From a virus (lineage: Duplodnaviria > Caudoviricetes), in the IMG/VR virus record IMGVR_UViG_3300037311_000517, positions 1 to 46,925 of that record: a stretch of 46,925 nt of DNA. One strand, given 5' to 3'. Of the stretch, positions 5,257-45,544 are shown one piece after another. The notes beneath the pieces are model-generated. The model worked only from the letters and a program-made list of their open reading frames with translations. It had not been told where the DNA came from and ran no database searches. Made by a program: the position numbers and the translations under genes. Position 1 is the stretch's first letter. Each line of letters begins with the position of its first letter.

Positions 5257-5807
5257 ACGCAAGCCAAGACCCGCGCGGCAAACGCAAGCGCAAGCCTGCG
5301 AAACCACGCGTCGAGGTGGCACCGTTGGCGGAGCCGCTGCCGTCGTCCGTATCGCTGACGACGCAGGCGCGGCGCGACTGGGATTTGGACGACGTGTGCG
5401 AACGCATCGCCGCAGGCGAGACCTACACCGTCATCGCAGCGGATTACGGCAAGAGCCAGGGCGCGCTGTCGCTGTGGCTGGCGGCAGAAACTAATCGTTC
5501 CGCGCGCGCGCGCGAGGCGGCTGCGATGGCCGGGCGGTTCTGGGACGAAGCGGCGGAAGCTGGGATTCGGGCGGCGACCGACGTGCTGGGGCTTGCGAAA
5601 GCCCGCGAATTGGCGCAACACCTCCGCTGGCGGGCGTCCAAACTCAGTCCCGCCTACGCCGACCGCAGCAAGGTCGAGGTCGGCGGCGCGGTGGGCGTGT
5701 TCGACGCGGCGCAGGCGCTGACCCCGGAGCAGTTGCAGCGGGTCGCGCAGGCGGTGCTGGAGGGCTTACCCCAGGACGGAGCCTCCGGTGACGGCGGGGG
5801 CGCGTAA
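5253..5807 (+). CDS. terS: Terminase small subunit (Sf6-like)
   Basis: DDVCERIAAGET...IAADYG HTH; ARARE; LRWRASKLSPAYADR motif; directly upstream of terL. Confidence 0.85.
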   Translation: MNASQDPRGKRKRKPAKPRVEVAPLAEPLPSSVSLTTQARRDWDLDDVCERIAAGETYTVIAADYGKSQGALSLWLAAETNRSARAREAAAMAGRFWDEAAEAGIRAATDVLGLAKARELAQHLRWRASKLSPAYADRSKVEVGGAVGVFDAAQALTPEQLQRVAQAVLEGLPQDGASGDGGGA

Positions 5808-7251
5808 CGCGCAGATCGCGGCGCTGCTGACGGCCGCGCGCGACAACCTGCTGGCCTACTGCTGCGCGGTCGATCCCAAGTACATCCCCTACGCTTGGCA
5901 CAAGTACCTGTGCCGGCGGTTGGAGGCGGCGATCCGGCGCGGTCGCGCCCGTTTGCTCATCTTTGCCCCGCCCCAGCATGGGAAAAGCGCGCTCGTCAGT
6001 TGCAAATTGCCCGCCTGGGTGATGGGGCGGCACCCCGACTGGCCGGTGATTGCGGCGAGCTACGGCGTCGATCTGGCGGAACGTAACGGCAAGGCCGTGC
6101 GCGATTTGATCGGCTCGCCGATCCACGGCGCGATCTTCCCGGCATCGCGCTTAGACGGCAGTAGCACGGCCAAAACCGACTTCCAGACCACGGCCGGCGG
6201 CCAGTATTACGGCACGACGGTCATGGGTGGCGGTACAGGCTTCTCGTCCAAGCTGTTCGTGGTCGATGATCCGTTCAAGTCGCGCGCCGAAGCCGATTCG
6301 GAAGTTGTGCGCGAGCGGGTGAAGGACTGGTATCGCTCCGTCGTCTACTCGCGTCTCGCCGAAGACGCGGTGCTGATCCTCATGCACACGCGCTGGCACG
6401 AAGATGACTTGGCCGGATGGTTGCTGCGCGAACACGCGCACGAGGACTGGGAGGTCATCAATCTGCCGGCGCTGGCCCTGGAGAACGATCCGCTGGGGCG
6501 TGAAGTGGGGCAGGCGCTGTGCCCGGAGCGGTATTCCGAGGCCGCGCTGGAACTCAAGCGCATCGCCAGCGGTTCCCGTGACTGGGAGGCGCTCTACATG
6601 CAGCGTCCCGTCGCCGGCACGGGCGGGTTCTTCAAGCGCGCGTGGCTGCGCGAGTACGACAGCATCCCGATCACCATCGCCCGGCCGATGAACCGCTATC
6701 TGCTGGTCGATCCGGCCGGCAGCAAGGCGAAGCGGTCGGATTTCACGGCGGTCGTGGTGGTCGGTCTGAACACCGATGGCCGCTATTACCTGCTGGACGC
6801 GGTGCGCGACAAGCTCAACCTGCGCGAACGCGCGGCGCTGGTGATTCGCATGCACCGCAAATGGAAGCCGCACAAGGTTGGGTACGAGAAGTACGGCAAG
6901 GACGCGGACATCGAACACTTGACGGTCGCGATGGAGGCGGAGAACTACCGTTTCACGGTCCACGAACTCGGCGGGCAGATGTCCAAAGAGGCGCGGATCA
7001 AGCGGCTGGAGCCGGATTTCGAGAACGGTCGCTGGTGGTTGCCGCGCACGCTGCCCAAGGCGCTGCACGACGGCAAGCCGGTGGACGTGATCGAGCGGTT
7101 CGTCAACGAGGAATACCTCACGTTCCCGGCCGGCGTCCACGACGACATGCTCGACAGCATGGCGCGCATCTACGACATCCAAGCCGTGTTCCCCAAGGGC
7201 ACCGGCAGCGTGCGCCGCGCGTCGGCGTCGGATTCCAATTTCGCGTGGTGA
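5788..7251 (+). CDS. terL: Terminase large subunit
   Basis: Walker A PPQHGKS; Walker B VVDDPFK; HTRWHEDD; nuclease motifs VDPA...SDFTA and HDDMLD. Confidence 0.96.
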   Translation: MTAGARNAQIAALLTAARDNLLAYCCAVDPKYIPYAWHKYLCRRLEAAIRRGRARLLIFAPPQHGKSALVSCKLPAWVMGRHPDWPVIAASYGVDLAERNGKAVRDLIGSPIHGAIFPASRLDGSSTAKTDFQTTAGGQYYGTTVMGGGTGFSSKLFVVDDPFKSRAEADSEVVRERVKDWYRSVVYSRLAEDAVLILMHTRWHEDDLAGWLLREHAHEDWEVINLPALALENDPLGREVGQALCPERYSEAALELKRIASGSRDWEALYMQRPVAGTGGFFKRAWLREYDSIPITIARPMNRYLLVDPAGSKAKRSDFTAVVVVGLNTDGRYYLLDAVRDKLNLRERAALVIRMHRKWKPHKVGYEKYGKDADIEHLTVAMEAENYRFTVHELGGQMSKEARIKRLEPDFENGRWWLPRTLPKALHDGKPVDVIERFVNEEYLTFPAGVHDDMLDSMARIYDIQAVFPKGTGSVRRASASDSNFAW

Positions 7252-24613: not shown

Positions 24614-26158
24614 ATGCCGACCTACGATCCGCTCGCGATCCTCGATCGCGCCAGCGCCAGTTCCGCACAGTGGTTGCAGCAACTCGACGAGGCTGCCGCG
24701 CGGCAGGCGGACGCCCGGCAGCGCGCCTTCACCTTCGGGCTGGCGAACGATCTCGCGTTCAACACGCATCAGACTTCACTCGACAAACTCAACGCCGGCA
24801 ATGTCTACGGCGCAAGCCGGGCAGAAGCTGACACCCGTCTGCTACCCGCCTACGAGACGCGGCAGGGTGCGCTGTGGCGCCTCGACACCGATCAGGCGCA
24901 GATGCAGGGCCGCTTGCTGCCGGCACAAGAAGCGATGCAAGGCTCGGCCTACCGCTTGGGAAACGAACAGAACCACCTCGCGCTCGACACGCTCGGTCGC
25001 GCCTGGACGCCGGACAACCAACGCGCGCGCGACGCGGCCGAGGACATGCGCTACCAGAACCCGGTCGCCGATGCGGCGGCGCGGGATGCGGCGGGGCGCC
25101 TCGCCGATCCGTTGCAATCGGCGCAGGCCGGACAGCGTGCGGCGGCGGCGTGGCCGGGCGCGCAGGGCGTCGCCGGCCAGTACGGCGCGCCCTACGCCAG
25201 CGGCCTCTATGCGGCCGCGAGTTCCGCCCTGCTCGCCGGCAACGTGGACACCGCCAATGCCCTGCTGCAACAAGCGCAACTGGGACAGGTCGCGAAGAAC
25301 GCGGCGGGGCAGATCACCTACACCGATGCGCAGGGTCACGCCTATCCGACGATGCCGGCGGCATCGGCCGCCGCGTTGCTGCAAACGCTCACGGCGCAAT
25401 CGCCGACCGCGTGGCAGCACTACACCGACGCCGCCACGCGCGGCAGTACGACGCTCACGCCCTCACAGGAGAGCCAGAAAACCGTCCTCGAACACCGGAT
25501 TCAGACGCTGGACAAGGCCATCGTCAACGCGCTCGACGACACCGAACGCGCCTCGCTGCAACAGCAGCGCGACGATGCGACGCGCGCGCTCGGGGCGTTG
25601 TTCGGCGGGGTTGTGCCTACCGCACCGGCCGGCGCGTTCGATGCGCTGGGATTCGGCGCGCGCGTGGAGGATGCCCCGGCGGCCTCGCCGTCCACGGCAT
25701 CGCCCCAGCGCCGTCCCGCGAACCCGGCCCCGGTCGCCGCGCCCGCCGTCGCGCGTGCAGGCAGCGATGTCGAGATCGACCCGGCGATCGGCACGATCAA
25801 GCGCCCGCGCGAACAGCCGCGCACCGCCGATGCGCTGGAGACTTATCGCGACGCGGCGCAGCGGTGGCGCGATGCGGAGCGCAAGCTCAAGGAAGCGCAG
25901 CAGTCGCAGGAACGCTATCAAAGCACGGGCCGGGGCGTCGATCGACGCATCGCGGTCGAACGCTATACGCAGGCGGAAGCGCAGGCGCGGCGCGCGTTGC
26001 TCGATGCGCGCACCGTCTACCAGCGGGCGCAGCAGGAAGACGACACCGAACGGCAGCGGCGGACGGCACGTCCGGCCGTGCCGCAGACCACGACCGCCTA
26101 CGGCATCACCCTGCCGTCGTATGGCGCCGAACCGTATGAGGGGCCGTACCGGCCATGA
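24614..26158 (+). CDS. Internal virion / DNA ejection protein
   Basis: Start MPTYDPL after ACGGA; Ala/Gln-rich coiled coils; ATGA overlap with the next gene. Confidence 0.7.
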   Translation: MPTYDPLAILDRASASSAQWLQQLDEAAARQADARQRAFTFGLANDLAFNTHQTSLDKLNAGNVYGASRAEADTRLLPAYETRQGALWRLDTDQAQMQGRLLPAQEAMQGSAYRLGNEQNHLALDTLGRAWTPDNQRARDAAEDMRYQNPVADAAARDAAGRLADPLQSAQAGQRAAAAWPGAQGVAGQYGAPYASGLYAAASSALLAGNVDTANALLQQAQLGQVAKNAAGQITYTDAQGHAYPTMPAASAAALLQTLTAQSPTAWQHYTDAATRGSTTLTPSQESQKTVLEHRIQTLDKAIVNALDDTERASLQQQRDDATRALGALFGGVVPTAPAGAFDALGFGARVEDAPAASPSTASPQRRPANPAPVAAPAVARAGSDVEIDPAIGTIKRPREQPRTADALETYRDAAQRWRDAERKLKEAQQSQERYQSTGRGVDRRIAVERYTQAEAQARRALLDARTVYQRAQQEDDTERQRRTARPAVPQTTTAYGITLPSYGAEPYEGPYRP

Positions 26159-26898
26159 CGGACGCCGCTTACGATGCGTTCCGCAACCGCCTGGAGTCCG
26201 GCGGCGACGACAACGCCCACAACCCGCGTTCCGGCGCGCTGGGCAAGCATCAGTTCCTGGCTTCGACCTGGCTCGGGTTGGTGCGTCGTCATCAGCCCGC
26301 CTGGGCGCAGGGACTATCGAACGCGCAGATCCTCGATGCGCGCCGCGATGGTGCGCGATCGGATCAGATGGTCGCGCTCTACGATCAGGAGAGTGCGCAG
26401 CAGTTGGCCCGCGCCGGCTATGCCGCGACGCCCGGCAATCTGTATCTGGCGCACCATTTCGGGGCAGCAGGCGCGCAGAAGATTCTCGGCGCGAGCGACG
26501 ATACCCCGATGCAATCGCTGGTCACGCGCGCGGCGTACCGCGCCAATCCGCACTTGCACGGCAAGACCAAGGCGCAGGTCATGGCGGATTTCGTGCGGCG
26601 CGGCGGCGGGGCGGCGGCATTGTCTGCCGCGACGCCCGCGCGGACGACGGCATACACACCGTTTGCGCCTGCGGCGCAGACACCGCAATCCGTCACGGCG
26701 CCGGCTTGGCGTCCGGCATCGCTTCCCGCGCCGTCGCCATCACCGCCGCAGGCGGCCTACACCCTGCCGGGTCCGGCACCGATGCCGGAGGCGCGGGCAC
26801 CCGCGCCCGACTCCATGGCGATCGATCCGGCCGCGCCGTCGCCTGACGCTGCGCCTGAACCGACCCCACTCGAAACGCTACTGAGGATGCTGCGGTAA
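26155..26898 (+). CDS. Virion-associated lytic transglycosylase / lysozyme-like protein
   Basis: LESGG...A.NP.S.A.G..QF...TW and LYLAHHFG..GA motifs; Pro-rich tail; TAATG-coupled to the giant gene. Confidence 0.85.
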   Translation: MTDAAYDAFRNRLESGGDDNAHNPRSGALGKHQFLASTWLGLVRRHQPAWAQGLSNAQILDARRDGARSDQMVALYDQESAQQLARAGYAATPGNLYLAHHFGAAGAQKILGASDDTPMQSLVTRAAYRANPHLHGKTKAQVMADFVRRGGGAAALSAATPARTTAYTPFAPAAQTPQSVTAPAWRPASLPAPSPSPPQAAYTLPGPAPMPEARAPAPDSMAIDPAAPSPDAAPEPTPLETLLRMLR

Positions 26899-29800: not shown

Positions 29801-32800
29801 CGACCTGATACGCGATGCGGCGCAGACGGCGCGCGGCACGCTCTACGCCAAATCCGGCTTCCCTTGGGTGCGGTTGGAGGCAGGCACCACGATCACGGTC
29901 AACCACAAAGGCAAGATCGAGCATCGCCGCGAAGTGCCGTGGTCGGAGCGGTGGACCAAGGTCGAACCGTCCCCCGCGTCGAGCGAGGCCGAGAACACCG
30001 CTGCGGACACAAGCGCATCGTCTTCGACGCCGAAGGCGTCCGAGGCGGTGGATGCCCCGCAGGCACCGACGAACAACGATGCGATCCTGATGGACTTCGT
30101 GGACGCCCTGGTCGCACAGGTGCGCTCCGGGCAGTCGGGGCGGGTGGACTTTCCGGCAACCTTCGGACACGTCATCGAGGTGGAGGACGCGATGCGGGCC
30201 ATGCGCTCGGCGTTCGAGCGGGCCGGCGCCACCAACAGCGGCGGCCGGTTCGGCGCCCGCTACGCGGTCGATGGCGGCCTCATCACCCTGTCGAACAGCA
30301 GCTACCGCCTGTGGGCGGATGTCGCGACCGATGCCTCCCGACCGCTTCCCACCCGTGGGACGGAGGCGCACACTGGAACGACGCCCGCGCAGGCCATGCC
30401 ACCCGAAACGGCGAGCGCCGAGAACGAGGAGGACACCCCCGATGCAACATCTGGTCAATCCGAACGCCTATCCGCCCGAGGTGCGCGAGCAACTGCTGGC
30501 GATGTCGTCGCAGACCGCGCGCGAGATCGCGAACCGCTGGATGCTGGGTTGGCCCAAACGGGTGCAGCGGCTGATCGCGGAGAACTACTATCTGGAGGCG
30601 TTGGCGGACCAGACCGAGCAGGAAACGCGGGCGAAGATGGACACCAGCCTGAACCATCTGTCGAGTTGGGAGAAGGCGCAGGTCTGGGAACTGTCGCTGG
30701 CGCCACCGATCTGGGATTACGAGGAGGAGGCCGTCAACGTCGTGGGCGACGAGGACGAGTAACCCAAGAGGCCGCAGCGATCGACGATCCTGCGGCCTCT
30801 TCCGTCGAGGCCGACACCGCATCGCCGCAGGCCGAGCCTGCGGCGATGCCAGAGGCGGAGGTCGCGGCCGGACAGGCCGATGACGGTATGCCGGCCGAAG
30901 GGTTGGCGGACGATCTGGGCAAGGGCGGACTCGCGCGCAAGGCCCGCGACAATCTCGCCGCGATCCGTATCGTCAAGACGCTCGATGCTGAAAACCGTGT
31001 GGCGACGCCGGAGGAACGCCGGCAACTGGCCCGCTACGTCGGCTGGGGTGCGCTCAAGGTCGTGTTCGATCCGGCCAATGCGCAGTGGGCGAAAGTCCGC
31101 ACCGAACTGCAAGGATTGCTCTCCGATGCCGAATGGCGCGCGGCGCGCGCCTCGACGCTCAACGCGCACTACACCAGCAAGACGGTCATCGACGGCATGT
31201 ACGCCGGCCTTGCGCGCCTGGGCGTCACGGGCGGGCGCATTCTGGAACCGGCGGTCGGCATCGGCCACTTCTTCGGCGGGATGCCCGCGAAGCTGCGCCA
31301 TGCCTCCGACCTGTTCGGCATCGAACTCGATCCGCTGACGCAACGCATCGCCGCCGCGTTGTACCCGAAGGCGAACATCCGCCAGAGCGGGTTTCAGGAC
31401 GTGGCGATCCTGGGCGAATTCTTCGATGTGGCGATCGGCAATCCGCCGTTCGGCAGCGAACCCATCGTTGATCCCGAACGCAGCGCGTATTCGGGATTCA
31501 GCATCCACAACTACTTTTTCGCCAAGTCCATCGACAAGCTGCGGCCGGGCGGCGTGTTGATGATGGTCGTCTCGCGCCAATTCCTCGACGCCAAAGACAG
31601 CCGGGCGCGGCAGTGGATCGCGGAACGCGCCGACCTGATCGCGGCGGTACGTCTGCCCCGAACCGCGTTCGCGGAGAACGCGGGCACCGAAGTCGTCACC
31701 GACATCATCGTCCTGCAAAAACGTGCTGCCGAGGCCGAGCCGCAAACGGATGAGCAGATTCAAGTGGCCTTGCGCTGGGTGCAGACGGCCGAACAGCGGT
31801 TGGAACATCCCGCGACCGGCGAGGCGATGACGTTCCGCGTGAATCCCTATTTCTTGGATCACCCCGATCATGTCCTGGGCACGCCCTCGGCCAGCGGTTC
31901 GATGTATCGGGCAAACGAGTACACCGTCGAGCCGTCCGGCGAGTTGGGGGCGCAGTTGCGGGCGTGGGCCGAGCGATTGCCCGAAGGCCGCTACACGCCG
32001 ATCGAGCGCACGGAGGCGATGACCGACACCGAAGTGCCCGAAGGCACGAAGGTCGGCGCCTACTTCGTGGCCGACGATGGCGGCATCCATGTTCGCAGCG
32101 AAGATCGCATGGGTACGGCGAAAGCAGTGCCGTGGACGGCGCCGGGCGCGACCGCCGAGGCACGCATGCGCGGCATGATCGAGTTGCGCAACGTCCTGCG
32201 CCAGCAAATGCGTTTGGAGCGTTCGCCAGAGGCGACGACGAAGCAGATCGAGACCAATCGGCGCACGCTCAACGACCGCTATGACGCTTTCCTCAAGCGG
32301 TACGGACATCTCAACGCCTCGCGCACCAATCGCAGTTTGTTTTTCGACGACCCCGATGCGAGCCTGCTGCTGGCGCTGGAGTTCGACTACGACGCGGGCA
32401 TCAGCGAGGCCGTCGCCAAGCGCGAGGGTGTGGCGACGCGCGCACCGAAGGCGACCAAAGCCGACATCTTCCAGCGCCGCGTGCTGTTCCCGCCGTCGGA
32501 TGATGTGACCGTCACGAGCGCCCGCGACGCGCTGGTCGCGAGTCTCAACTATCGGGGCCGACTCGATCCGGCGTACATGACCGAGATTTACGGAAAGGAT
32601 CGCGCCGCGATCGTGGATGAACTGGGGGCGCTGGTGTTCGAGACGCCCGAGGGGGCGCTGGCGACCGCTGATGACTATCTCTCGGGCGATGTGAAAACCA
32701 AGCTCGCGGAAGCGAAGGACGCCGCCAAGCGCGACCCGCGCTTTGCGCGCAACGTCGAGGCGCTGACCAAGATCATTCCGCGCGACAAGACCCCCAGCGA

Positions 32801-35800
32801 AATCACCATCGCGCTCGGCGCGCCGTTCCTGCCAGTGGAGGATCTGCGTGCGTTCCACCGCGAGATCACGGGCGCCGACGCGAACATGACCTATTCGCGC
32901 GGTTCGGGCCTGTGGTTCGTCCGCGTGGTCGGTGAGCCGGACCCGGTGCTCAATACCGCCACCTGGGGCACGAAGGACATGGAGGCGACGGACATTTTCC
33001 AGGCTACGCTGGTTGGGCGTGCGGTGGTCGTGACGAAGACCTACCGACGCGGCGATGGCAGCATGCAAACGGTCGTTCTTGAAGCCGAAACCGAACAGGC
33101 GCGTGAGAAGCAGAACGCGCTGCGCGTCGAGTGGCGCGCATGGGTCTGGCGCGACCCGGAGCGCGCTGAACGCCTGCTCGCGCTCTACAACGAGAAGATG
33201 AATCGCACGGTCGAACGGCGATTCGATGGCCGTCATCTCACGTTGCCGGGCATGAGTCCGGGTTTGACCTTGTTGCAGCATCAGCAGAACGGCGTGTGGC
33301 GCGGATTGCAATCGCGGCAACTGCTGCTCGATCACGTCGTCGGCGCCGGCAAGACCTTCCAGATGGTCGCGATCGCGATGGAGATGCGCCGTCTGGGCAT
33401 CGCACGAAAGCCGCTGTTCGCGGTCCCCAATCACCTGACGGTGCAGTGGCGCACCGAGTTCGCGCGCCTGTATCCCGGCGCGGTCGTGTTGGCGGCGGAG
33501 CCGGACGACTTCACGCGCGAAAACCGCAAGAAGCTGTTTTCGCGGATCGTGACCGGGGACTGGGATGCGGTCATCGTCGGTCATTCGTCGCTGAAGAAAA
33601 TCGGACTGCCGGAGGAGACCGAGACGCGCATCCTTCAGGAACAGGTCGATGAAATCGCCGGCCTGATCGAAGCGATGAAACGCGAGCGTGGCGACAAGGG
33701 CATCGTGCGCGAGATGGAGGGCATCCGCGTTCGCCTGCTGTCGAAGATCAAGAGCAAGCAGGCCGCCATCGGTCAGCGCGACGATGTGCTGACCTTCGAC
33801 GAACTGGGCGTCGATGCGCTGTTCGTGGACGAATTGCACGAGTTCAAGAACCTGTTTTACACCACGGCGATGTCGCGTGTCCCCGGCATGGGTAATCCGA
33901 ACGGTTCCGACCGCGCGTTCGATCTGTTCGTGAAAACGCAGTGGTTGTTCGAGACCTTCGGCGACAAGGCGCCGATCGTCACCGCGACCGGCACCCCGGT
34001 CAGCAATTCGCTGGTGGAGATGTTCAACCTCCAGCGGTACATGCAGTACCCGACGTTGAAGCGGCAGGATTTGCACGTCTTCGACGCCTGGGCGCGCCAG
34101 TACGGCAGCATCGAGAACGTCTACGAGGTCGCGCCCTCGGGCGCAGGATTCCGCGCCTCGACGCGGTTCGCGAAATTCCAGAACCTGCCGTCGCTGATGG
34201 CGGGCTACCGCGCGTTCGCCGATGTCGTGACCCTGGACGATCTGAAGGCGCAGGAAGCCGCGCAGGGCAAACGCTTCCCGGTGCCGAAGCTGCTCGGCGG
34301 CAAACCGCAGATCGTGGTGGCCGAGCGGTCTCCGCTGGTCTCGGAGTTCATGGGCGTGCCGCATCTGGCCCGAAGCAAGGCCGGTGGCGTCGAGTTCGGG
34401 TTCAATCCGGGGGCGGGCGAAACGACGACGATCACGACGCAGGAGGACGGGCGCTTCAAGGTCGAGGTCGAAGGCGGGCCGTATGTCCGTTCCCTCGGTG
34501 TGTATCCCACCCGCGAAGAGGCGGACATGGCCGTGGTCGAGGCGGCGTTGACGCCGAAGATCGACCTGAACCCAGCGTCGATTCTGGGGCGGTTTGCGCG
34601 CATCCGCGAATTGACGCGGGAGACCAAGGGCAAGGTCAATGCGCTGTCCTTGACCGGGCAGGCCAATAAGGCGGGCTTGGACTATCGGTTGATCGACCCG
34701 ACCGCACCGGATTTTCCGGGGTCGAAAATCAACTTGTCGATTGAACGCATGCTCGCGTTGTATCGGCAGTGGGACGCCGAGAAGGGGACGCAGTTGGTGT
34801 TCTGCGACCTGTCGGTGCCCAATACGGCGCGTAAGTCGGCAGCAACCAAAGCGCAGCGCGTCTATGTGCGTGACGACGATGGGAGCGTGATCCACGCCCG
34901 AGGCACAGCGCATACCGTCGCGGACGTAGAGGAATTGCCGTTCCTGCTCATCGAGCGCAAACGCAAGGGGCAGGCGAGCGTCGCCGTCTACGATGCCGCC
35001 ACCGGGCGCCTTCGCTCGGATGGCCACGGCAGTCGGGAGAGCGCGCTGTTCTGGGCGCAGCAGGCACTGCGTTCGGATGACGGACGGCAACGCTGGCTGG
35101 CGCAGCGCGAAGCGGAACGCGAGGCCGGACAGGAGTTGAGTCAGGCCGAGATCGACGACTACAACGACGCCAACGCCATCGACACAGAAGCCAGCGCGTC
35201 GCTGGACTTGCAGGACATCGCGGCCCTGAGCGCGGCGGCGAGCTTCAGCGTCTACGACGATCTGCGCACCAAGCTCATCGCCGGGGGCGTGCCGGCGGAG
35301 GAAATCGCCTTCATCCACGACTACGGGAACCCCGATGCCAAGGCCAAGCTGTTCAAGCGCGTGAATCTGGGCGAAGTGCGGTTCCTGTTCGGCTCGACGC
35401 CGAAGATCGGCGCGGGCACGAATGTGCAGCAACGTATCGTCGGTCTGCATCACATCGACGCGCCGTGGAAGCCGAGCGATCTGGAACAGCGTGAAGGTCG
35501 CGCGATCCGGCGCGGCAACCAACTCTACGAGCGCGACCCGGACGGCTTCGAGGTCGCGATCTACCGTTACGCGACCCGCCAGACCTACGATACCCGGCGC
35601 TGGCAGTTGCTCGAACACAAGGCGCGCGGCATCGAGCAGTTGCGCAAGTACGACGGCCAGCAGACCGAGATCGAGGACATCGACGGCGAAGCGGCGAACG
35701 CGGCCGAAATGAAGGCCGCCGCGTCGGGTGATCCGCTGATCCTGCGCGAGACGCAGTTGCGCAATGAAGTCCGGCGACTGGAACAGTTGGAATTGGCGCA

Positions 35801-38800
35801 CGCCGACAACCAAACCGCCTTCCAGCGCCAGGCCCGGAGCGCGGAGGACTACGCGCAGACTGGCGGCGTGCGCCACCTGAAGGCGTTGCGAGCGCTTGCG
35901 GAACAGGCGGCAAAGCACCCACTGCCGGACGACAAGGAGGCCGTGCCGAGCGGGACGACGCTCGATGGCGAGCGGTTCGCCGAGCGCAAGGCGTTGACCC
36001 AAACGATCGCGCGGCGTGTCGGTGCGTTGCTCGGGCCGGCGGAATCGGTGGCATCGGTGGAACTGGTGTATCGCGGCGTGCGTTTTGACATCGATCGCTG
36101 GTTTGGGACATCGGTGCGCGTCTCCACCGATCTGGGCGAGGTGGCGATCTATGCGCGTGCTGCGGAGAGTTTTTCCGCGACCGGCCTGCTGACGCGGCTG
36201 AACAATTACATCGACCGCGTCGGCGCCGAAATCGTGGATGTCGAGGGCCGCATCGAACTCGCCAGAAACGATGCCGAGCGCTTCAAAGCCGAGGCCGCAA
36301 AGCCGTTCGATCAGGTGCAGGCGTTGCGCGAGGCGCGCGAGCAGTACCGCCGCGTGCAGCGGCTCCTGCTGGTGCGCGGGCCGGAAATCCCCGACCACGA
36401 ACGCCCGATGCTCGACGCCGCCCTGGAGACGCAGCGCGCGGCGCTGCGTGAGGTCGGGTTCGGCGATGCGCTGGACGAACTGCTGGACTACCGAAGCCTC
36501 AGCGATGACGGAACGGGGAATTTCAGCAAGCGTGCCGGACAGGCCGGGCGCGGGGCGAGCGTTGCCCAGGTCCGTCGTGTCGTGGACGACATGATGGTGG
36601 GCTGGAAGGGCGCCCCCGTGGTGCGCGTGGTCGAAACCCCCGATCACTTGCCGGCGTCGGCCCGACGTGCGTCCGATGTCCATCTCGCCGAGGGCTACTA
36701 CGCGCACAGTACCGGCACGGTCTACCTCGTCGCCAGCGCACTGCCGAACCGGCAGGCCGTGCAGCGTGTGCTGTTGCATGAGGCCATCGGCCATTACGGC
36801 ATCGAGGCCATCGCCGGCCCGGCGCTATGGGCGCAGATCGCCGAGGGCGTTCACCGGCTGCGCGAGAAGGGGCGTCACGGCCGGCTGTTCGCCGAACATG
36901 CCCGGCGCGGGTATCTCGACAGCGGTTGGGACGACACCGCGATCCGCGAGTTCATCGCGATGATGGCGGAATCAGGCATTCAGGACACGCTGCTAGACCG
37001 GCTGATCGCCGCCGTGCGTGCCTTCCTGCGCAGGCTTGGCGCGCGCTGGCGGTTGTCCGAGGCGGAATTGCGGCAGTTGATCGTTCGCGCCGCGCGGCAG
37101 GTTCGCATCGGTGGCGCACGGAATGTGATGGCAAACGGGTCGCAGATGGTCGTTGCGTTTTCGCGGGTGGCGGGCTTCCGTTCCGCGCTGCTGCAATCGC
37201 TGGAACGTGCCGAAGGCGCACCGCGGCGCGGGACCGCCGAGCAGTGGCAGCAATGGCTTGACGGCGTGCAGCGGCGCGGCGGGTTCAAGCAGGCCGAGCG
37301 CGATTGGCTCGATGTGGACGCCTGGTTGAGTACGCGGGAGAGCATGACGGGCGAGGCGCGGATCGCGCGCGAGGCGTTGACCGAATTCGTGCGCAACCAT
37401 CAGGTGCGGATCGGCGAACAGTTGATCGGAGGCGATACGGCGCGGTTTCATGCCGCCCTGGACCGATTGCAAGCAGCGGGATTCGAGGTCGAAATGCCGC
37501 CTTCGTATGGCGTGTCTCTGTTGCGCGACGGCGAGGAAGTCGATGAGCGCACGCTGACGGAGGTGCAGAAAGAAGATTTTGAGACGCTTTCGACCGGGAT
37601 GGAAACGGCGGAACCGCTCGTGTCTGGCGAAGGCGTGTATGCCCGCTACCAGATCGAAGGTGGGCGCGACTACCGCGAACTGCTGCTGACCTTTCCGGTG
37701 CAGCCGTCGAGCCGCAATGCGGATGAACCCTACCGCAGCGATCACTACCTGTCCGTGAAGAACGTGCTGGTCCACATCCGCTACAACGAGCGGGAGGACG
37801 TGGACGGCAAGCGCATGCTGTTCATCGAAGAACTCCAGTCCGATTGGCATCAGCACGGGCGGCGCTACGGGTATCGTCCGGCCACCGATCCCAAGGTCGC
37901 GCCGGATGCGCCGTTCAAGGCCACCGAGGAGTGGACCTTGCTGGCGATCAAGCGCATGGTGCGGATGGCGGCCGAGCGCGGGTTTCAGCGCATCGGCTGG
38001 ACGACCGGCGCGCAGCAGACCTCACGCTACGCGCGTGGCGAGCAGGTCGATGCCCTCGACTATCTGCCGCTGCCCTCGGGCGCGTACCGCGTCGCCGGAC
38101 TGAAGCAGGGCGAGGTGGTGCGCGAAATGGAGGTGCCGGCGACGTTGTTGTCGCCGTTGCTGGGCGAGAAGGTGGCGGCCCGTGTCCGCGCGGGCGATGG
38201 CGACCTGTCGCCGCGCGGCAGCACGCGGGGAACGCCCCTGCGGCGGCTGGATGCGTTGTCGCTCCACCTGGGCGACGCCGGCATGGGCGGGTACTACGAC
38301 GGTATCGTGCCGGCCGTAGTCAACCGCTGGGCGCGTCCTCTCGGCGCGCAGACGACGACCGCGAAAATCCGCCCCCGCTTCCGAGCGCACGCGCTCGACG
38401 TTCACGCCCTCGACATCACTCCGGCGATGCGTGCGGCTGTGGCGGAGGGGCTGCCAATGTTCAGCCGGCGCGCGCCGGAGGACTTCCTGGCCGATGTGGA
38501 CGCGGTGGTGCGTCTGGACGAAGACGCCAGCCGGCTCGATCGCGTGCGGCGATGGTTGCGCGACAGCACGCCCGCGAAACTGAAGGATGCCAGCCGCAGC
38601 GTGTGGCTCGGCGCGCTCGCAACGAATCAACTGACGGAACTCGGCAGCGATTACGACCCGGCCATCGCGGGATTCTCGCGGCTGCTCGATGCGATGTCGG
38701 CCGACCGCAATGCGTTGCTGGAAGAGGGCGCGGACCTTGCCGAATCCGTCCGTCGCTGGGCCGGTAAGCACAAGGAGGATGCGAAGCGCCTGTTCGATCT

Positions 38801-43548: not shown

Positions 43549-44208
43549 TCATAGCCAGCCGATGACCATTCCAAGCAGGCGCAGTTCCGACAATTCCGCG
43601 ATCGGGACCGATGTCTTCGCCCGTTCTTCGTTATCGCCGACCAGCACCCACGAGTCTCGGCGAATCGCGACGCGGCGAACATCCGTCCGCCCCCACAGCG
43701 AGTAGGCATACACCCCGCCATCGACGACATCCTCGTGGCGTGTAGCGCTGATGTCTACCAGGATGACGGCATGCCGCTTGATTTCGGGTTCCATTGTCCG
43801 CGACTGCTGCGTGACCCAGCGGACATTCTCGATGGGTGTAGCACCCAATTCGCGTCGCAGCATGAGTTCCGGCAGCCAGAGGCGTTCCTGTTCGTCGGCG
43901 CGACCGAAGCCCTGCAATCGCTCGATCACCGCATGGCCTACTGGCGGGTTCGCCCACGCCTCCGGACCATTGACTGAGGCGATGGCGCCTGATTGCAGCA
44001 AGCGGTCATAAGGCTGGCTGATCGACTCTGGCGGGACGCCGAGTATCTTCCCGATCTTGACGGCGTACTCGGCCGGGATCGGGCGCCGTCCGCTTCGCCA
44101 CTGCGCGACGCTGTTGTCGCTGAAGGTGCCGACTTGCGCTGCCAGCGTCCGGCTGCGGATGCGGGTCTGGTCCATCGCAGCGACAAATGCCTCGGTGTAC
44201 TTGTTCAT
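43549..44208 (-). CDS. Second CI-like regulator (HTH + S24-like domain with substituted catalytic residues)
   Basis: HTH SVAQWRSGRRPIP...LGVPPESIS; SRTMEP and DVRRV in place of DSMEP and VKR. Confidence 0.82.
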   Translation of the reverse strand: MNKYTEAFVAAMDQTRIRSRTLAAQVGTFSDNSVAQWRSGRRPIPAEYAVKIGKILGVPPESISQPYDRLLQSGAIASVNGPEAWANPPVGHAVIERLQGFGRADEQERLWLPELMLRRELGATPIENVRWVTQQSRTMEPEIKRHAVILVDISATRHEDVVDGGVYAYSLWGRTDVRRVAIRRDSWVLVGDNEERAKTSVPIAELSELRLLGMVIGWL

Positions 44209-44254
44209 AGGCGTGATCCTACTCGACCCGGCAGGGTGGCGACAGAAATTTGAT

Positions 44255-44290
44255 ATTGCCATTGACAATGCTCCGGGGCAATGGTTTCCT
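44255..44290. promoter_or_regulatory. Divergent promoter/operator between the second repressor and the csrA-like cluster
   Basis: TTGACA at 44262 inside palindrome CATTG-A-CAATG; ATTGCC...GGCAAT inverted repeat; -10 box poor. Confidence 0.5.
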
Positions 44291-44757: not shown

Positions 44758-45135
44758 ATGCCTGTCTTCGATTGCACTGTGGGCGAATCGCTGAGGATCG
44801 GCAGCGACATTCGCCTGAACTTGACCGGGCGCGTGGACGAGATGCTCTACGTCTTCATCGACGCAGCATCGCGGCACGACCTGGGCGGTGTCGGTGGATT
44901 CCACGCCAGCGCGCCGTGCGGCGTCCGGCGGCGTGCGCATGTGCTGGCGCTGCGCGATCACGAGTCGTTCTCGATCGGCCCTGTCGGCATTACGGTCGAT
45001 GCCGTTCATCTGCGCATACCGGGTGCGCGTGCGCTGCGAGACGTGCGCCTGCACATCGCCCCGTCGTCGCCACTCATCATCGTGCGCCAAGAGCCGTCGC
45101 GTCCCCGCCGTCGTATCCATCGTCTCGCGGGTTGA
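44758..45135 (+). CDS. Divergent tandem CsrA-like protein 2
   Basis: [13 protein letters not shown]...IDA and [12 protein letters not shown]...VRLHI.....IVRQE. Confidence 0.72.
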
Positions 45136-45142
45136 TCGTCCC

Positions 45143-45544
45143 ATGTTGGTCCTGACTCGCCGTATCGGCGAAAGCATCCGCATCGGCGACCGCGTGCGCC
45201 TGACGATCCTCTCCAAGCTGCGCGCGCATCTCACGGTCGCGCTGGCCGTGCCCCCGAACATCGCCATCACCGATGACACCGATATGCCGGTCAGTCCCGT
45301 GCGTCGGCGGCATCGTCGCGGTAAGCGGTACTTGATTGCCGTGATGGTCGGCGATTCTCTGCGGATCGGCGACGAGGTGGTCGTGTCTTTCGGCGATGGC
45401 CCCTTCGTCGGCTACCTGGGGCTCGCACGCGGCCGACAAGTTCGGATCGGCATCGACGCCCCGCGCGAAGTCCCAGTCCATCGGGAAGAAGTCTACCAAC
45501 GCATTCAACGCGGGGAATCTGACCCGCGCAGGGAGCGACATTGA
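45143..45544 (+). CDS. csrA: Tandem (two-domain) CsrA/RsmA family RNA-binding protein
   Basis: [16 protein letters not shown]... and [10 protein letters not shown]...[23 protein letters not shown]. Confidence 0.9.

Follow-up and report, generated by a model that had tools for sequence, protein, structure and literature searches.

A small gene in the +1 frame of a DarB-like methyltransferase-helicase gene recurs in phages and plasmids and is probably a distant relative of TnpV

Long genes that lie completely within another gene of the same strand are rare in prokaryotes and their viruses, and are mostly lineage-specific. Among phages, an Rz1 gene embedded within Rz is described for the Bcep22-like phage JC1 (PMC9144972). 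A different setting is provided by the antirestriction protein DarB of phage P1, which travels in the virion and shields DNA from restriction, as stated in the main text of PMC5512222, where the methyltransferase (MTase)-helicase is also proposed to act on newly transferred DNA. TnpV, in turn, is listed as a protein of unknown function in PMC12634702. The present work concerns a gene of 106 codons which lies wholly in the +1 frame of a DarB-like gene of 4805 codons, in a stretch of 46,925 nucleotides of a virus of the Caudoviricetes (IMG/VR record IMGVR_UViG_3300037311_000517, positions 1 to 46,925), hereafter termed the window.

The nested open reading frame (ORF) begins with an ATG at 30442, ends with a TAA at 30760-30762 and codes for a protein with the C-terminal end DYEEEAVNVVGDEDE. 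The original prediction, made from the letters of the window alone, had placed a GAGGAGG element nine nucleotides before an ATG that opens this 106-residue frame, and both were found, the Shine-Dalgarno (SD) sequence lying one base to the left of the start it had been given (Table 1). A longer +1 frame from an ATG at 30271, open upstream, was considered as the true gene and rejected, because the homologues begin at the ATG at 30442. The long frame runs without a stop across the nested gene, and its residues there are of low complexity, as had been noted: glycine, arginine, alanine and aspartate account for 60% of them (39% in the whole protein) and hydrophobic residues for 14% (27% in the whole protein). 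The G+C content at codon positions 1, 2 and 3 is 0.66/0.38/0.87 in the nested frame and 0.87/0.66/0.38 when these bases are read in the long frame, compared to 0.68/0.46/0.82 in the MTase region of the long gene, in agreement with the host-like, G/C-ending codons first proposed for the nested frame. The usual codon pattern of the window DNA (low G+C at the second position, GC2, and high at the third, GC3) shifts to the +1 frame at the nested ORF, and only 2 of 80 sixty-codon segments of the long gene have GC3 below 0.6, both of them over that ORF. When the codons of the long gene were shuffled 200 times, SD-led ATG ORFs of at least 90 residues arose at 0.28 per shuffle, and none had a coding-like GC2/GC3 pattern. 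SD-like tetramers precede 27 of the 33 projected starts of the window's type, versus 46 of 489 control ATGs in the +1 frame. No second member of the nested family was found in the window.

Twenty close homologues of the nested protein were obtained among 27 candidates and 127 by profile, and clustering at 50% identity gave 100 clusters. The ratio of nonsynonymous to synonymous substitution rates (dN/dS), determined for each frame in 20 chosen pairs, was 0.06-0.40 in the nested frame versus 0.77-7.7 for the identical stretch read in the long frame, and 0.06-0.20 in the MTase region (18 computable pairs). The +1 frame is thus under purifying selection, and the high values of the long frame are a mirror of that constraint rather than a sign of positive selection. 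In 527 of 528 pairs the nested protein is more similar than the long-frame protein, in an alignment built in the nested frame. Nine of the 40 listed strain differences in contigs of other studies (85 in all) fall within the nested ORF; seven of these are silent in the nested frame, and six of the seven alter a residue of the long frame.

Selection also acts against stops in the outer frame. The MTase is present in 49 of 75 loci of the family (duplicate contigs included), and in all 49 the long frame is stop-free across the nested gene, with the MTase in the same long ORF in 48, while 17 of 24 loci without an MTase have long-frame stops; contig ends cut two further loci. Stop-prone sites were taken as those at which a synonymous T would make a long-frame stop, with near-identical copies and locus L034 left out. 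Among 33 MTase-linked loci none of 585 such sites carries a stop (74 expected), and among 19 clade representatives none of 330 (48 expected), whereas the control inside the MTase gave 175/975 (17.9%) versus 628/2994 (21.0%). In the two other families examined the counts are likewise 0/1257 (160 expected) and 0/128 (32 expected), the relatives in each family being non-independent. Stops of the same (-1) frame are still depleted in loci that lack the MTase, at 26 of 330 sites versus 63 expected. Assembly error at the nested gene is excluded, because two further studies each supply a contig that covers the site gaplessly, one over the whole stretch with 48 substitutions and the second over 30342-31400 with 47 (another sequencing run, identical to the window, may be its source, and no RNA run was listed as holding the sequence); nor did the long ORF come apart into two genes flanking the small one. 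Both frames are very probably translated, from one mRNA, in line with the same-strand dual coding that had been proposed.

The arrangement recurs, and homologues do sit inside DarB-like genes, as the original prediction had anticipated. Pseudomonas phage 8P carries a gene of the window family, at 31545-31817 of its record, within the gene of a 5145-residue 'structural protein'. Ten more of the 139 phage records with an MTase match were examined, comprising seven cultured phages and three gut records. The seven phages (Pavtok, SopranoGao, Itty13, Bcep22, VvAW1, Atu_ph08 and Heva) all have an unannotated, SD-led +1 ORF of 102-109 residues before the MTase, and the three gut records all have a +1 ORF farther upstream of it. 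A scan with the Pavtok-type protein yielded 67 viral loci, none of which has an interrupted long frame; the MTase lies in the same ORF in all 64 that reach it, and an SD precedes 60 of 60 starts, the start having been picked with the SD in view. A search anchored on the MTase confirmed at least 356 viral loci, and of the 80 that ranked best 76 have a nested-family match (E ≤ 0.01), a proportion which is no census because the loci were ranked by their likeness to the window. All 76 matches, of which one (L191) is doubtful, lie within the long ORF in the +1 frame and none in the +2 frame, and 69 are preceded by an SD. The four misses consist of one locus cut by a contig end, one with a weak candidate (E 0.006) and two without any. 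The nested stop lies within about 200 nucleotides of the MTase in many phage loci, the distance ranging from a small overlap to more than 3 kb.

Standard annotation misses the nested gene in eight cultured phages, as had been expected, and in general a single frame of the pair is annotated. Eight phage records and two Bacillota plasmid tables give the long frame; four plasmid tables give the short one, with the long gene shortened or unlisted (all the plasmid tables being incomplete). The record of Itty13 (L077, NC_070969 3571-9428) annotates hypothetical proteins on the strand opposite the DarB-like gene. Several loci depart from the common layout. A second, diverged paralogue lies in tandem upstream of the main nested gene in L001, L004 and L005 (each at 5695-5961) and in L013 (2136-2408), and the long frame is open over both. 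In L021 and L057 (same contig) and in L034 the nested gene is intact and the long frame breaks off 147 and 81 codons past the nested stop, at a point within the MTase or shortly ahead of it. In Sinorhizobium phage PBC5, orf33 (L085:752-7309) reads from the N-terminal region of the giant gene into the nested ORF with no change of frame. The likely cause of this fusion is an error in the sequence or a private frameshift, because it occurs in one genome (two database copies) and the relatives keep the long frame whole. Owing to the fusion, phrog_938 ('endolysin') ends with the nested family, which explains the matches to phrog_938.

The nested protein of the window is probably a distant relative of TnpV, linked to it through the intermediate Pavtok-type family, although it is kept out of the Pfam family PF14198. 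Neither Pfam nor PHROGs gave a match for the window's nested family, and the Pfam TnpV profile found nothing at E ≤ 1 in 59 members, at E ≤ 0.1 in 98 distant matches, or in the window's own record. A lead to TnpV from the Atlas was weak (11% of one cluster, score 0.80). The AlphaFold model has a five-helix core with a mean predicted local distance difference test value of 78 and a disordered tail. Its predicted helices (24-36, 38-46, 50-66 and 75-81) have the same layout as those of the bridging Pavtok type (3-17, 19-27, 31-51 and 56-68) at an offset of 19, in a comparison of two predicted models by residue register. With deeper alignments, HHalign related the window type to the Pavtok type at 60.7% (E 8e-5, 59 ungapped columns); the Pavtok type was related to TnpV at 94.2% (E 1e-7), and the Bcep22 type to TnpV at 95.9% and to the Pavtok type at 91.8%. 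The window type and the Bcep22 type gave 0.8%, six reversed controls at most 1.1%, and shallow alignments 1.7, 21.7 and 0.4%, which are not significant. All profile alignments place the core W/Y-x4-P-x-x-V/Y-x-x-L-x3-G-x-L/Y in one register.

TnpV itself occupies the nested position in some loci. The nested ORF of gut locus L083 is a true TnpV (E 7e-32), and four of the eight other ORFs, three of the Pavtok type and that of Bcep22, match PF14198 below its cut-off (E 2e-4 to 0.045). Eight of the 24 plasmid records with a TnpV match were examined together with L083. In all six Bacillota or gut loci with an MTase, TnpV is nested in the +1 frame of a continuous MTase-helicase ORF, as it is in L082 and L084, and in the three TnpV loci without an MTase the frame is blocked by three to four stops. 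In addition, the nested proteins at L159:2989-3288, L183:4648-4917 and L237:4645-4974 look like a transition from the Pavtok type to TnpV, their C-terminal helix resembling that of TnpV.

With regard to the origin of the overlap, it is quite likely that the nested gene represents the older frame and that the 5' end of the enzyme gene was later extended over it, since the nested gene has an ordinary codon pattern and stand-alone homologues. The original prediction had envisaged a small gene engulfed when the MTase-helicase module fused to an ejection protein. An older small gene remains likely; the ejection protein does not, as plasmid-type long frames start only 15-17 codons before the nested ATG in L037 and L038, the versions of Azoarcus (60 codons in L026, and 124-140 in L007, L008 and L030). 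Nesting thus appears to be tied to the methylase-helicase module independently of that fusion. On an MTase tree (FastTree, 83 rows) the nested type changes 9 times versus 34.4 in shuffles, and the 26 window-type rows form a single branch with support 100, while the 400 residues upstream fall into nine clusters among 33 loci (of 23 and 3 loci and seven singles; some sequences short or cut). Such agreement, as seen in the trees, shows co-inheritance and is no evidence of co-evolution, because the labels would also group together through physical linkage and common ancestry by themselves. The long proteins of the plasmid type (L007, L008, L026, L030, L037 and L038) begin with QLDLF or a near variant (QFDFF, QANLF, QNGLF), and KPQLDL(L)FD occurs just past the overlap or linker in L034, L037 and L038. 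We take these N-termini to resemble the beta-clamp-binding motif QL[SD]LF, and such a motif may be the reason why an extension of 15-17 codons is still read across the nested gene.

The function which best fits these observations, and which is put forward tentatively, is to serve the giant enzyme as its own chaperone or inhibitor. Both proteins would be made from one mRNA, the small one from its own ribosome-binding site, and since its ORF is short and the SD strong, more of the partner than of the enzyme would be produced. In the producing cell the enzyme would have to be folded, kept inactive and readied for export, and the small protein would attend to the methylase-helicase until it is packaged or transferred; nesting would keep partner and module together whenever the module joins a new N-terminal carrier. 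We infer that the client is the MTase-helicase module, and not the capsid or pilus, because the same partner occurs in virion-delivered and plasmid-borne versions. Small dedicated chaperones are mildly acidic and helical, and the nested families have a median isoelectric point of 4.6-5.8 and are predicted to be helical. A complex prediction with nested residues 1-94 and long-protein residues 1336-2110 (neither the helicase lobes nor the N-terminal part) scored 0.00 in two runs made without modelled controls, and is not used as evidence. More speculatively, DarB-like methylase-helicase genes across phyla may be two-gene cassettes on one stretch of DNA, in which an ancient chaperone or inhibitor of the TnpV superfamily is locked in the +1 frame of the linker, such that the module is neither moved nor expressed without its control protein. 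This would be a natural gene entanglement and would supply the missing function of TnpV.

Several results weigh against such a partnership or against the link to TnpV. P1 DarB, the one tested member, starts almost directly with its MTase, and the 26.5 kb of P1 that were searched contain no member of the family, which means that not every such enzyme needs the partner; two viral loci (L192 and L218) have no family member within 5 kb. Conversely, 24 loci of the window family and three TnpV loci have no MTase in the examined flanks, which means that the protein may work without an enzyme client, or that these copies may be relics. The direct HHalign comparison of the window type with TnpV is not significant (0.6%, E 0.1), and Foldseek found no match at E ≤ 0.001 in BFVD and the PDB. 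Many of the 24 MTase-less copies (L014-L016, L018-L020, L024, L028, L029, L031-L033, L035 and L039-L049) still have a former long frame with hardly any stops or none at all, as would be expected after a recent loss of the giant gene.

A rather doubtful alternative, yet one with evidence of its own, is that the nested protein acts alone, as a small regulator or counter-defence factor which binds DNA or a host restriction or repair protein and shares with the antirestriction enzyme its timing and purpose. Stand-alone copies do occur in other mobile contexts, the tandem paralogues suggest diversification as in conflict effectors, and TnpV is reported to resemble viral transcriptional regulators by PSI-BLAST (PMC12634702). 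Near-obligate nesting in one gene family, in phages as well as Bacillota plasmids, nevertheless exceeds what shared timing would demand, and the nested type tracks the MTase tree, although physical linkage alone gives congruence. No helix-turn-helix or mimic family was matched among the Pfam and PHROGs profiles or by Foldseek against BFVD and the PDB. The original suggestion that the acidic tail makes the protein a DNA mimic proved weak: mimics of the Ocr/ArdA type have a conserved, strongly acidic surface and a fold like that of a known mimic, whereas the tail is present in 21 of 207 family members and the core has a net charge of -2, and this candidate was rejected. An adaptor similar to Ulx, which aids DarB loading, would bring the giant protein into the capsid or conjugation machinery and might travel along with it. 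This is unlikely, as the same small protein would need to work with capsids and also with type IV secretion systems, and P1 DarB relies on an N-terminal signal of 30 residues (PMC9024508). There is room for an unannotated helper in JC1, since PMC9144972 reports a virion-associated DarB homologue (51 unique peptides) and no homologues of the P1 helpers DdrA, DdrB, Hdf and Ulx. Ulx and its neighbours, however, show no similarity to the nested protein; Ulx was rejected as a homologue after a search of four family profiles against six frames of P1 at 6.5-33 kb (best E 0.94), and IddB was rejected likewise, with no similarity to the nested families.

It is also improbable that the overlap is chiefly a translation device, whereby internal initiation throttles the long frame or is coupled to restart of a shorter methylase-helicase, or whereby ribosomes pass from the N-terminal part into the nested ORF by a +1 frameshift. 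The short distance between the nested stop and the MTase in many phage loci would suit coupling, and PBC5 orf33 would suit a frameshift. The distance varies widely, however, the PBC5 fusion is confined to that genome, SDs precede the nested starts of both the Pavtok and the window types, and the nested amino-acid sequence is strongly selected and has a good predicted fold. An artefact, finally, is refuted and keeps only a negligible chance, whether as a shadow ORF in a GC-rich gene or as a misassembly that fused two genes around an ordinary small one. GC-rich genes do yield long alternative ORFs, such as a minus-strand ORF of 2025 residues over the MTase-helicase region (30717-36794), which is itself probably a GC shadow, and for two plasmids RefSeq lists the small gene next to an MTase gene of reduced length. 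These plasmids likewise have an uninterrupted long frame, the arrangement is also present in cultured phages with complete genomes, and the gapless contigs and the selection on both frames stand against either form of the argument.

The long protein matches phrog_10089 (DarB-like) with an E of 0. By the motif definitions of PMC5512222, a DarB-type dyad combines LPD36 with GXGU, an NPP(Y/F) MTase and a SWI2/SNF2 helicase in one chain, and the long protein has all of these, the first two as GWGA and NPPF. Its LPD36-like/MTase region begins about 140-160 nucleotides 3' of the nested stop, and the helicase lobes are represented by Pfam matches at residues 2131-2238 and 2802-2873, both below the cut-off. 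The stop codon of the upstream transglycosylase-like gene shares one base with the start of the long gene. The record of the window is that of a provirus at 74% completeness, in which genes of the repressor, replication, Q-like and virion classes are present. The closest relatives of its nested gene lie in genome bins of Lysobacterales and unclassified Pseudomonadota, which suggests a host of that group. A PHROG scan named 8 of 30 other ORFs of the window, and most of the unnamed ones at 4.8-16.7 kb were minus-strand ORFs that probably lie on the wrong strand. The same record contains two CI-like repressor genes (43549-44268 and 1-741, both on the minus strand) and a CsrA-like domain (44888-45544, plus strand); a CsrA-like protein is virion-associated in JC1 (PMC9144972).

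Table 1. Coordinates of the nested gene, the long gene and its domains in the window
Feature	Coordinates	Strand	Remarks
Nested gene, 106 aa, +1 frame of long gene	30442..30762	+	predicted five-helix core, residues 1-89; acidic tail not conserved
Shine-Dalgarno GAGGAGG of nested gene	30426..30432	+	9 nt 5' of ATG
DarB-like polyvalent protein gene, 4805 aa	26898..41315	+	phrog_10089; adenine MTase, SNF2-type helicase, C-terminal LPD39
G/R/A/D-rich linker of long frame, about residues 1182-1289, same bases as nested gene	30441..30764	+	
LPD36-like helices (GWGA motif) and N6-adenine MTase (NPPF motif) of long protein	30903..31820	+	
SNF2-type helicase/translocase lobes of long protein, approximate	33200..35600	+	
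Transglycosylase-like gene upstream	26155..26898	+	phrog_4067, E 6e-21

The nesting described here recurs at one spot in a widespread family of antirestriction genes, from Bcep22-like podophages to gut Bacillota plasmids. It gives TnpV, a common gene of unknown function, a definite context, in which function can be tested through substitution of a single base, with the sequence of the giant protein left unaltered. The nested gene may also provide the missing helper of DarB-like proteins in phages without the P1 accessory genes.

Among the systems described to date, TnpV of Tn4451 is comparable in being a small helical protein of mobile elements with the same +1 nested position in MTase-helicase genes; the protein of the window differs in that it has no Pfam TnpV match and does not have the N-terminal Y-x4-DY-x-x-P-N-L segment of TnpV. 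The long gene belongs, by its LPD36-like GWGA, NPPF adenine MTase, SNF2-type helicase, LPD39 and match to phrog_10089, to the DarB-type dyads of polyvalent proteins, which include P1 DarB; the latter, however, is barely extended at its N-terminus and has no gene nested in it. P1 does have an annotated gene nested within a gene of its antirestriction cluster, iddB in ddrB, but this one is antisense, lies in a different host gene and bears no similarity to the nested families. As for earlier descriptions of the present overlap, the main text of PMC5512222 (Iyer et al. 2017; its supplementary files lie outside that text) makes no mention of TnpV, overlap or frameshift, the table rows seen in PMC9144972 give no gene between the ends of gp69, the DarB-like gene of JC1, and titles and abstract openings contained no account of nesting in DarB-like genes, the original work on Bcep22 and Tn4451 being outside this coverage. 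The closest parallel in form is Rz1 within Rz, likewise a complete gene inside another on the same strand, in a shifted frame and conserved over many phages. The spanin products work together, as those of the pair described here may do; here the nested gene carries the constraint, and the outer frame contributes a linker of an enzyme of 1,500-5,000 residues; and here the nested gene also stands alone, and the arrangement extends to phages and plasmids of several phyla. Nested genes on the same strand are thus already known from Rz1 in Rz, and what is new is a case across phyla, apparently old, in which the hidden gene is the constrained one and the giant gives an open linker.

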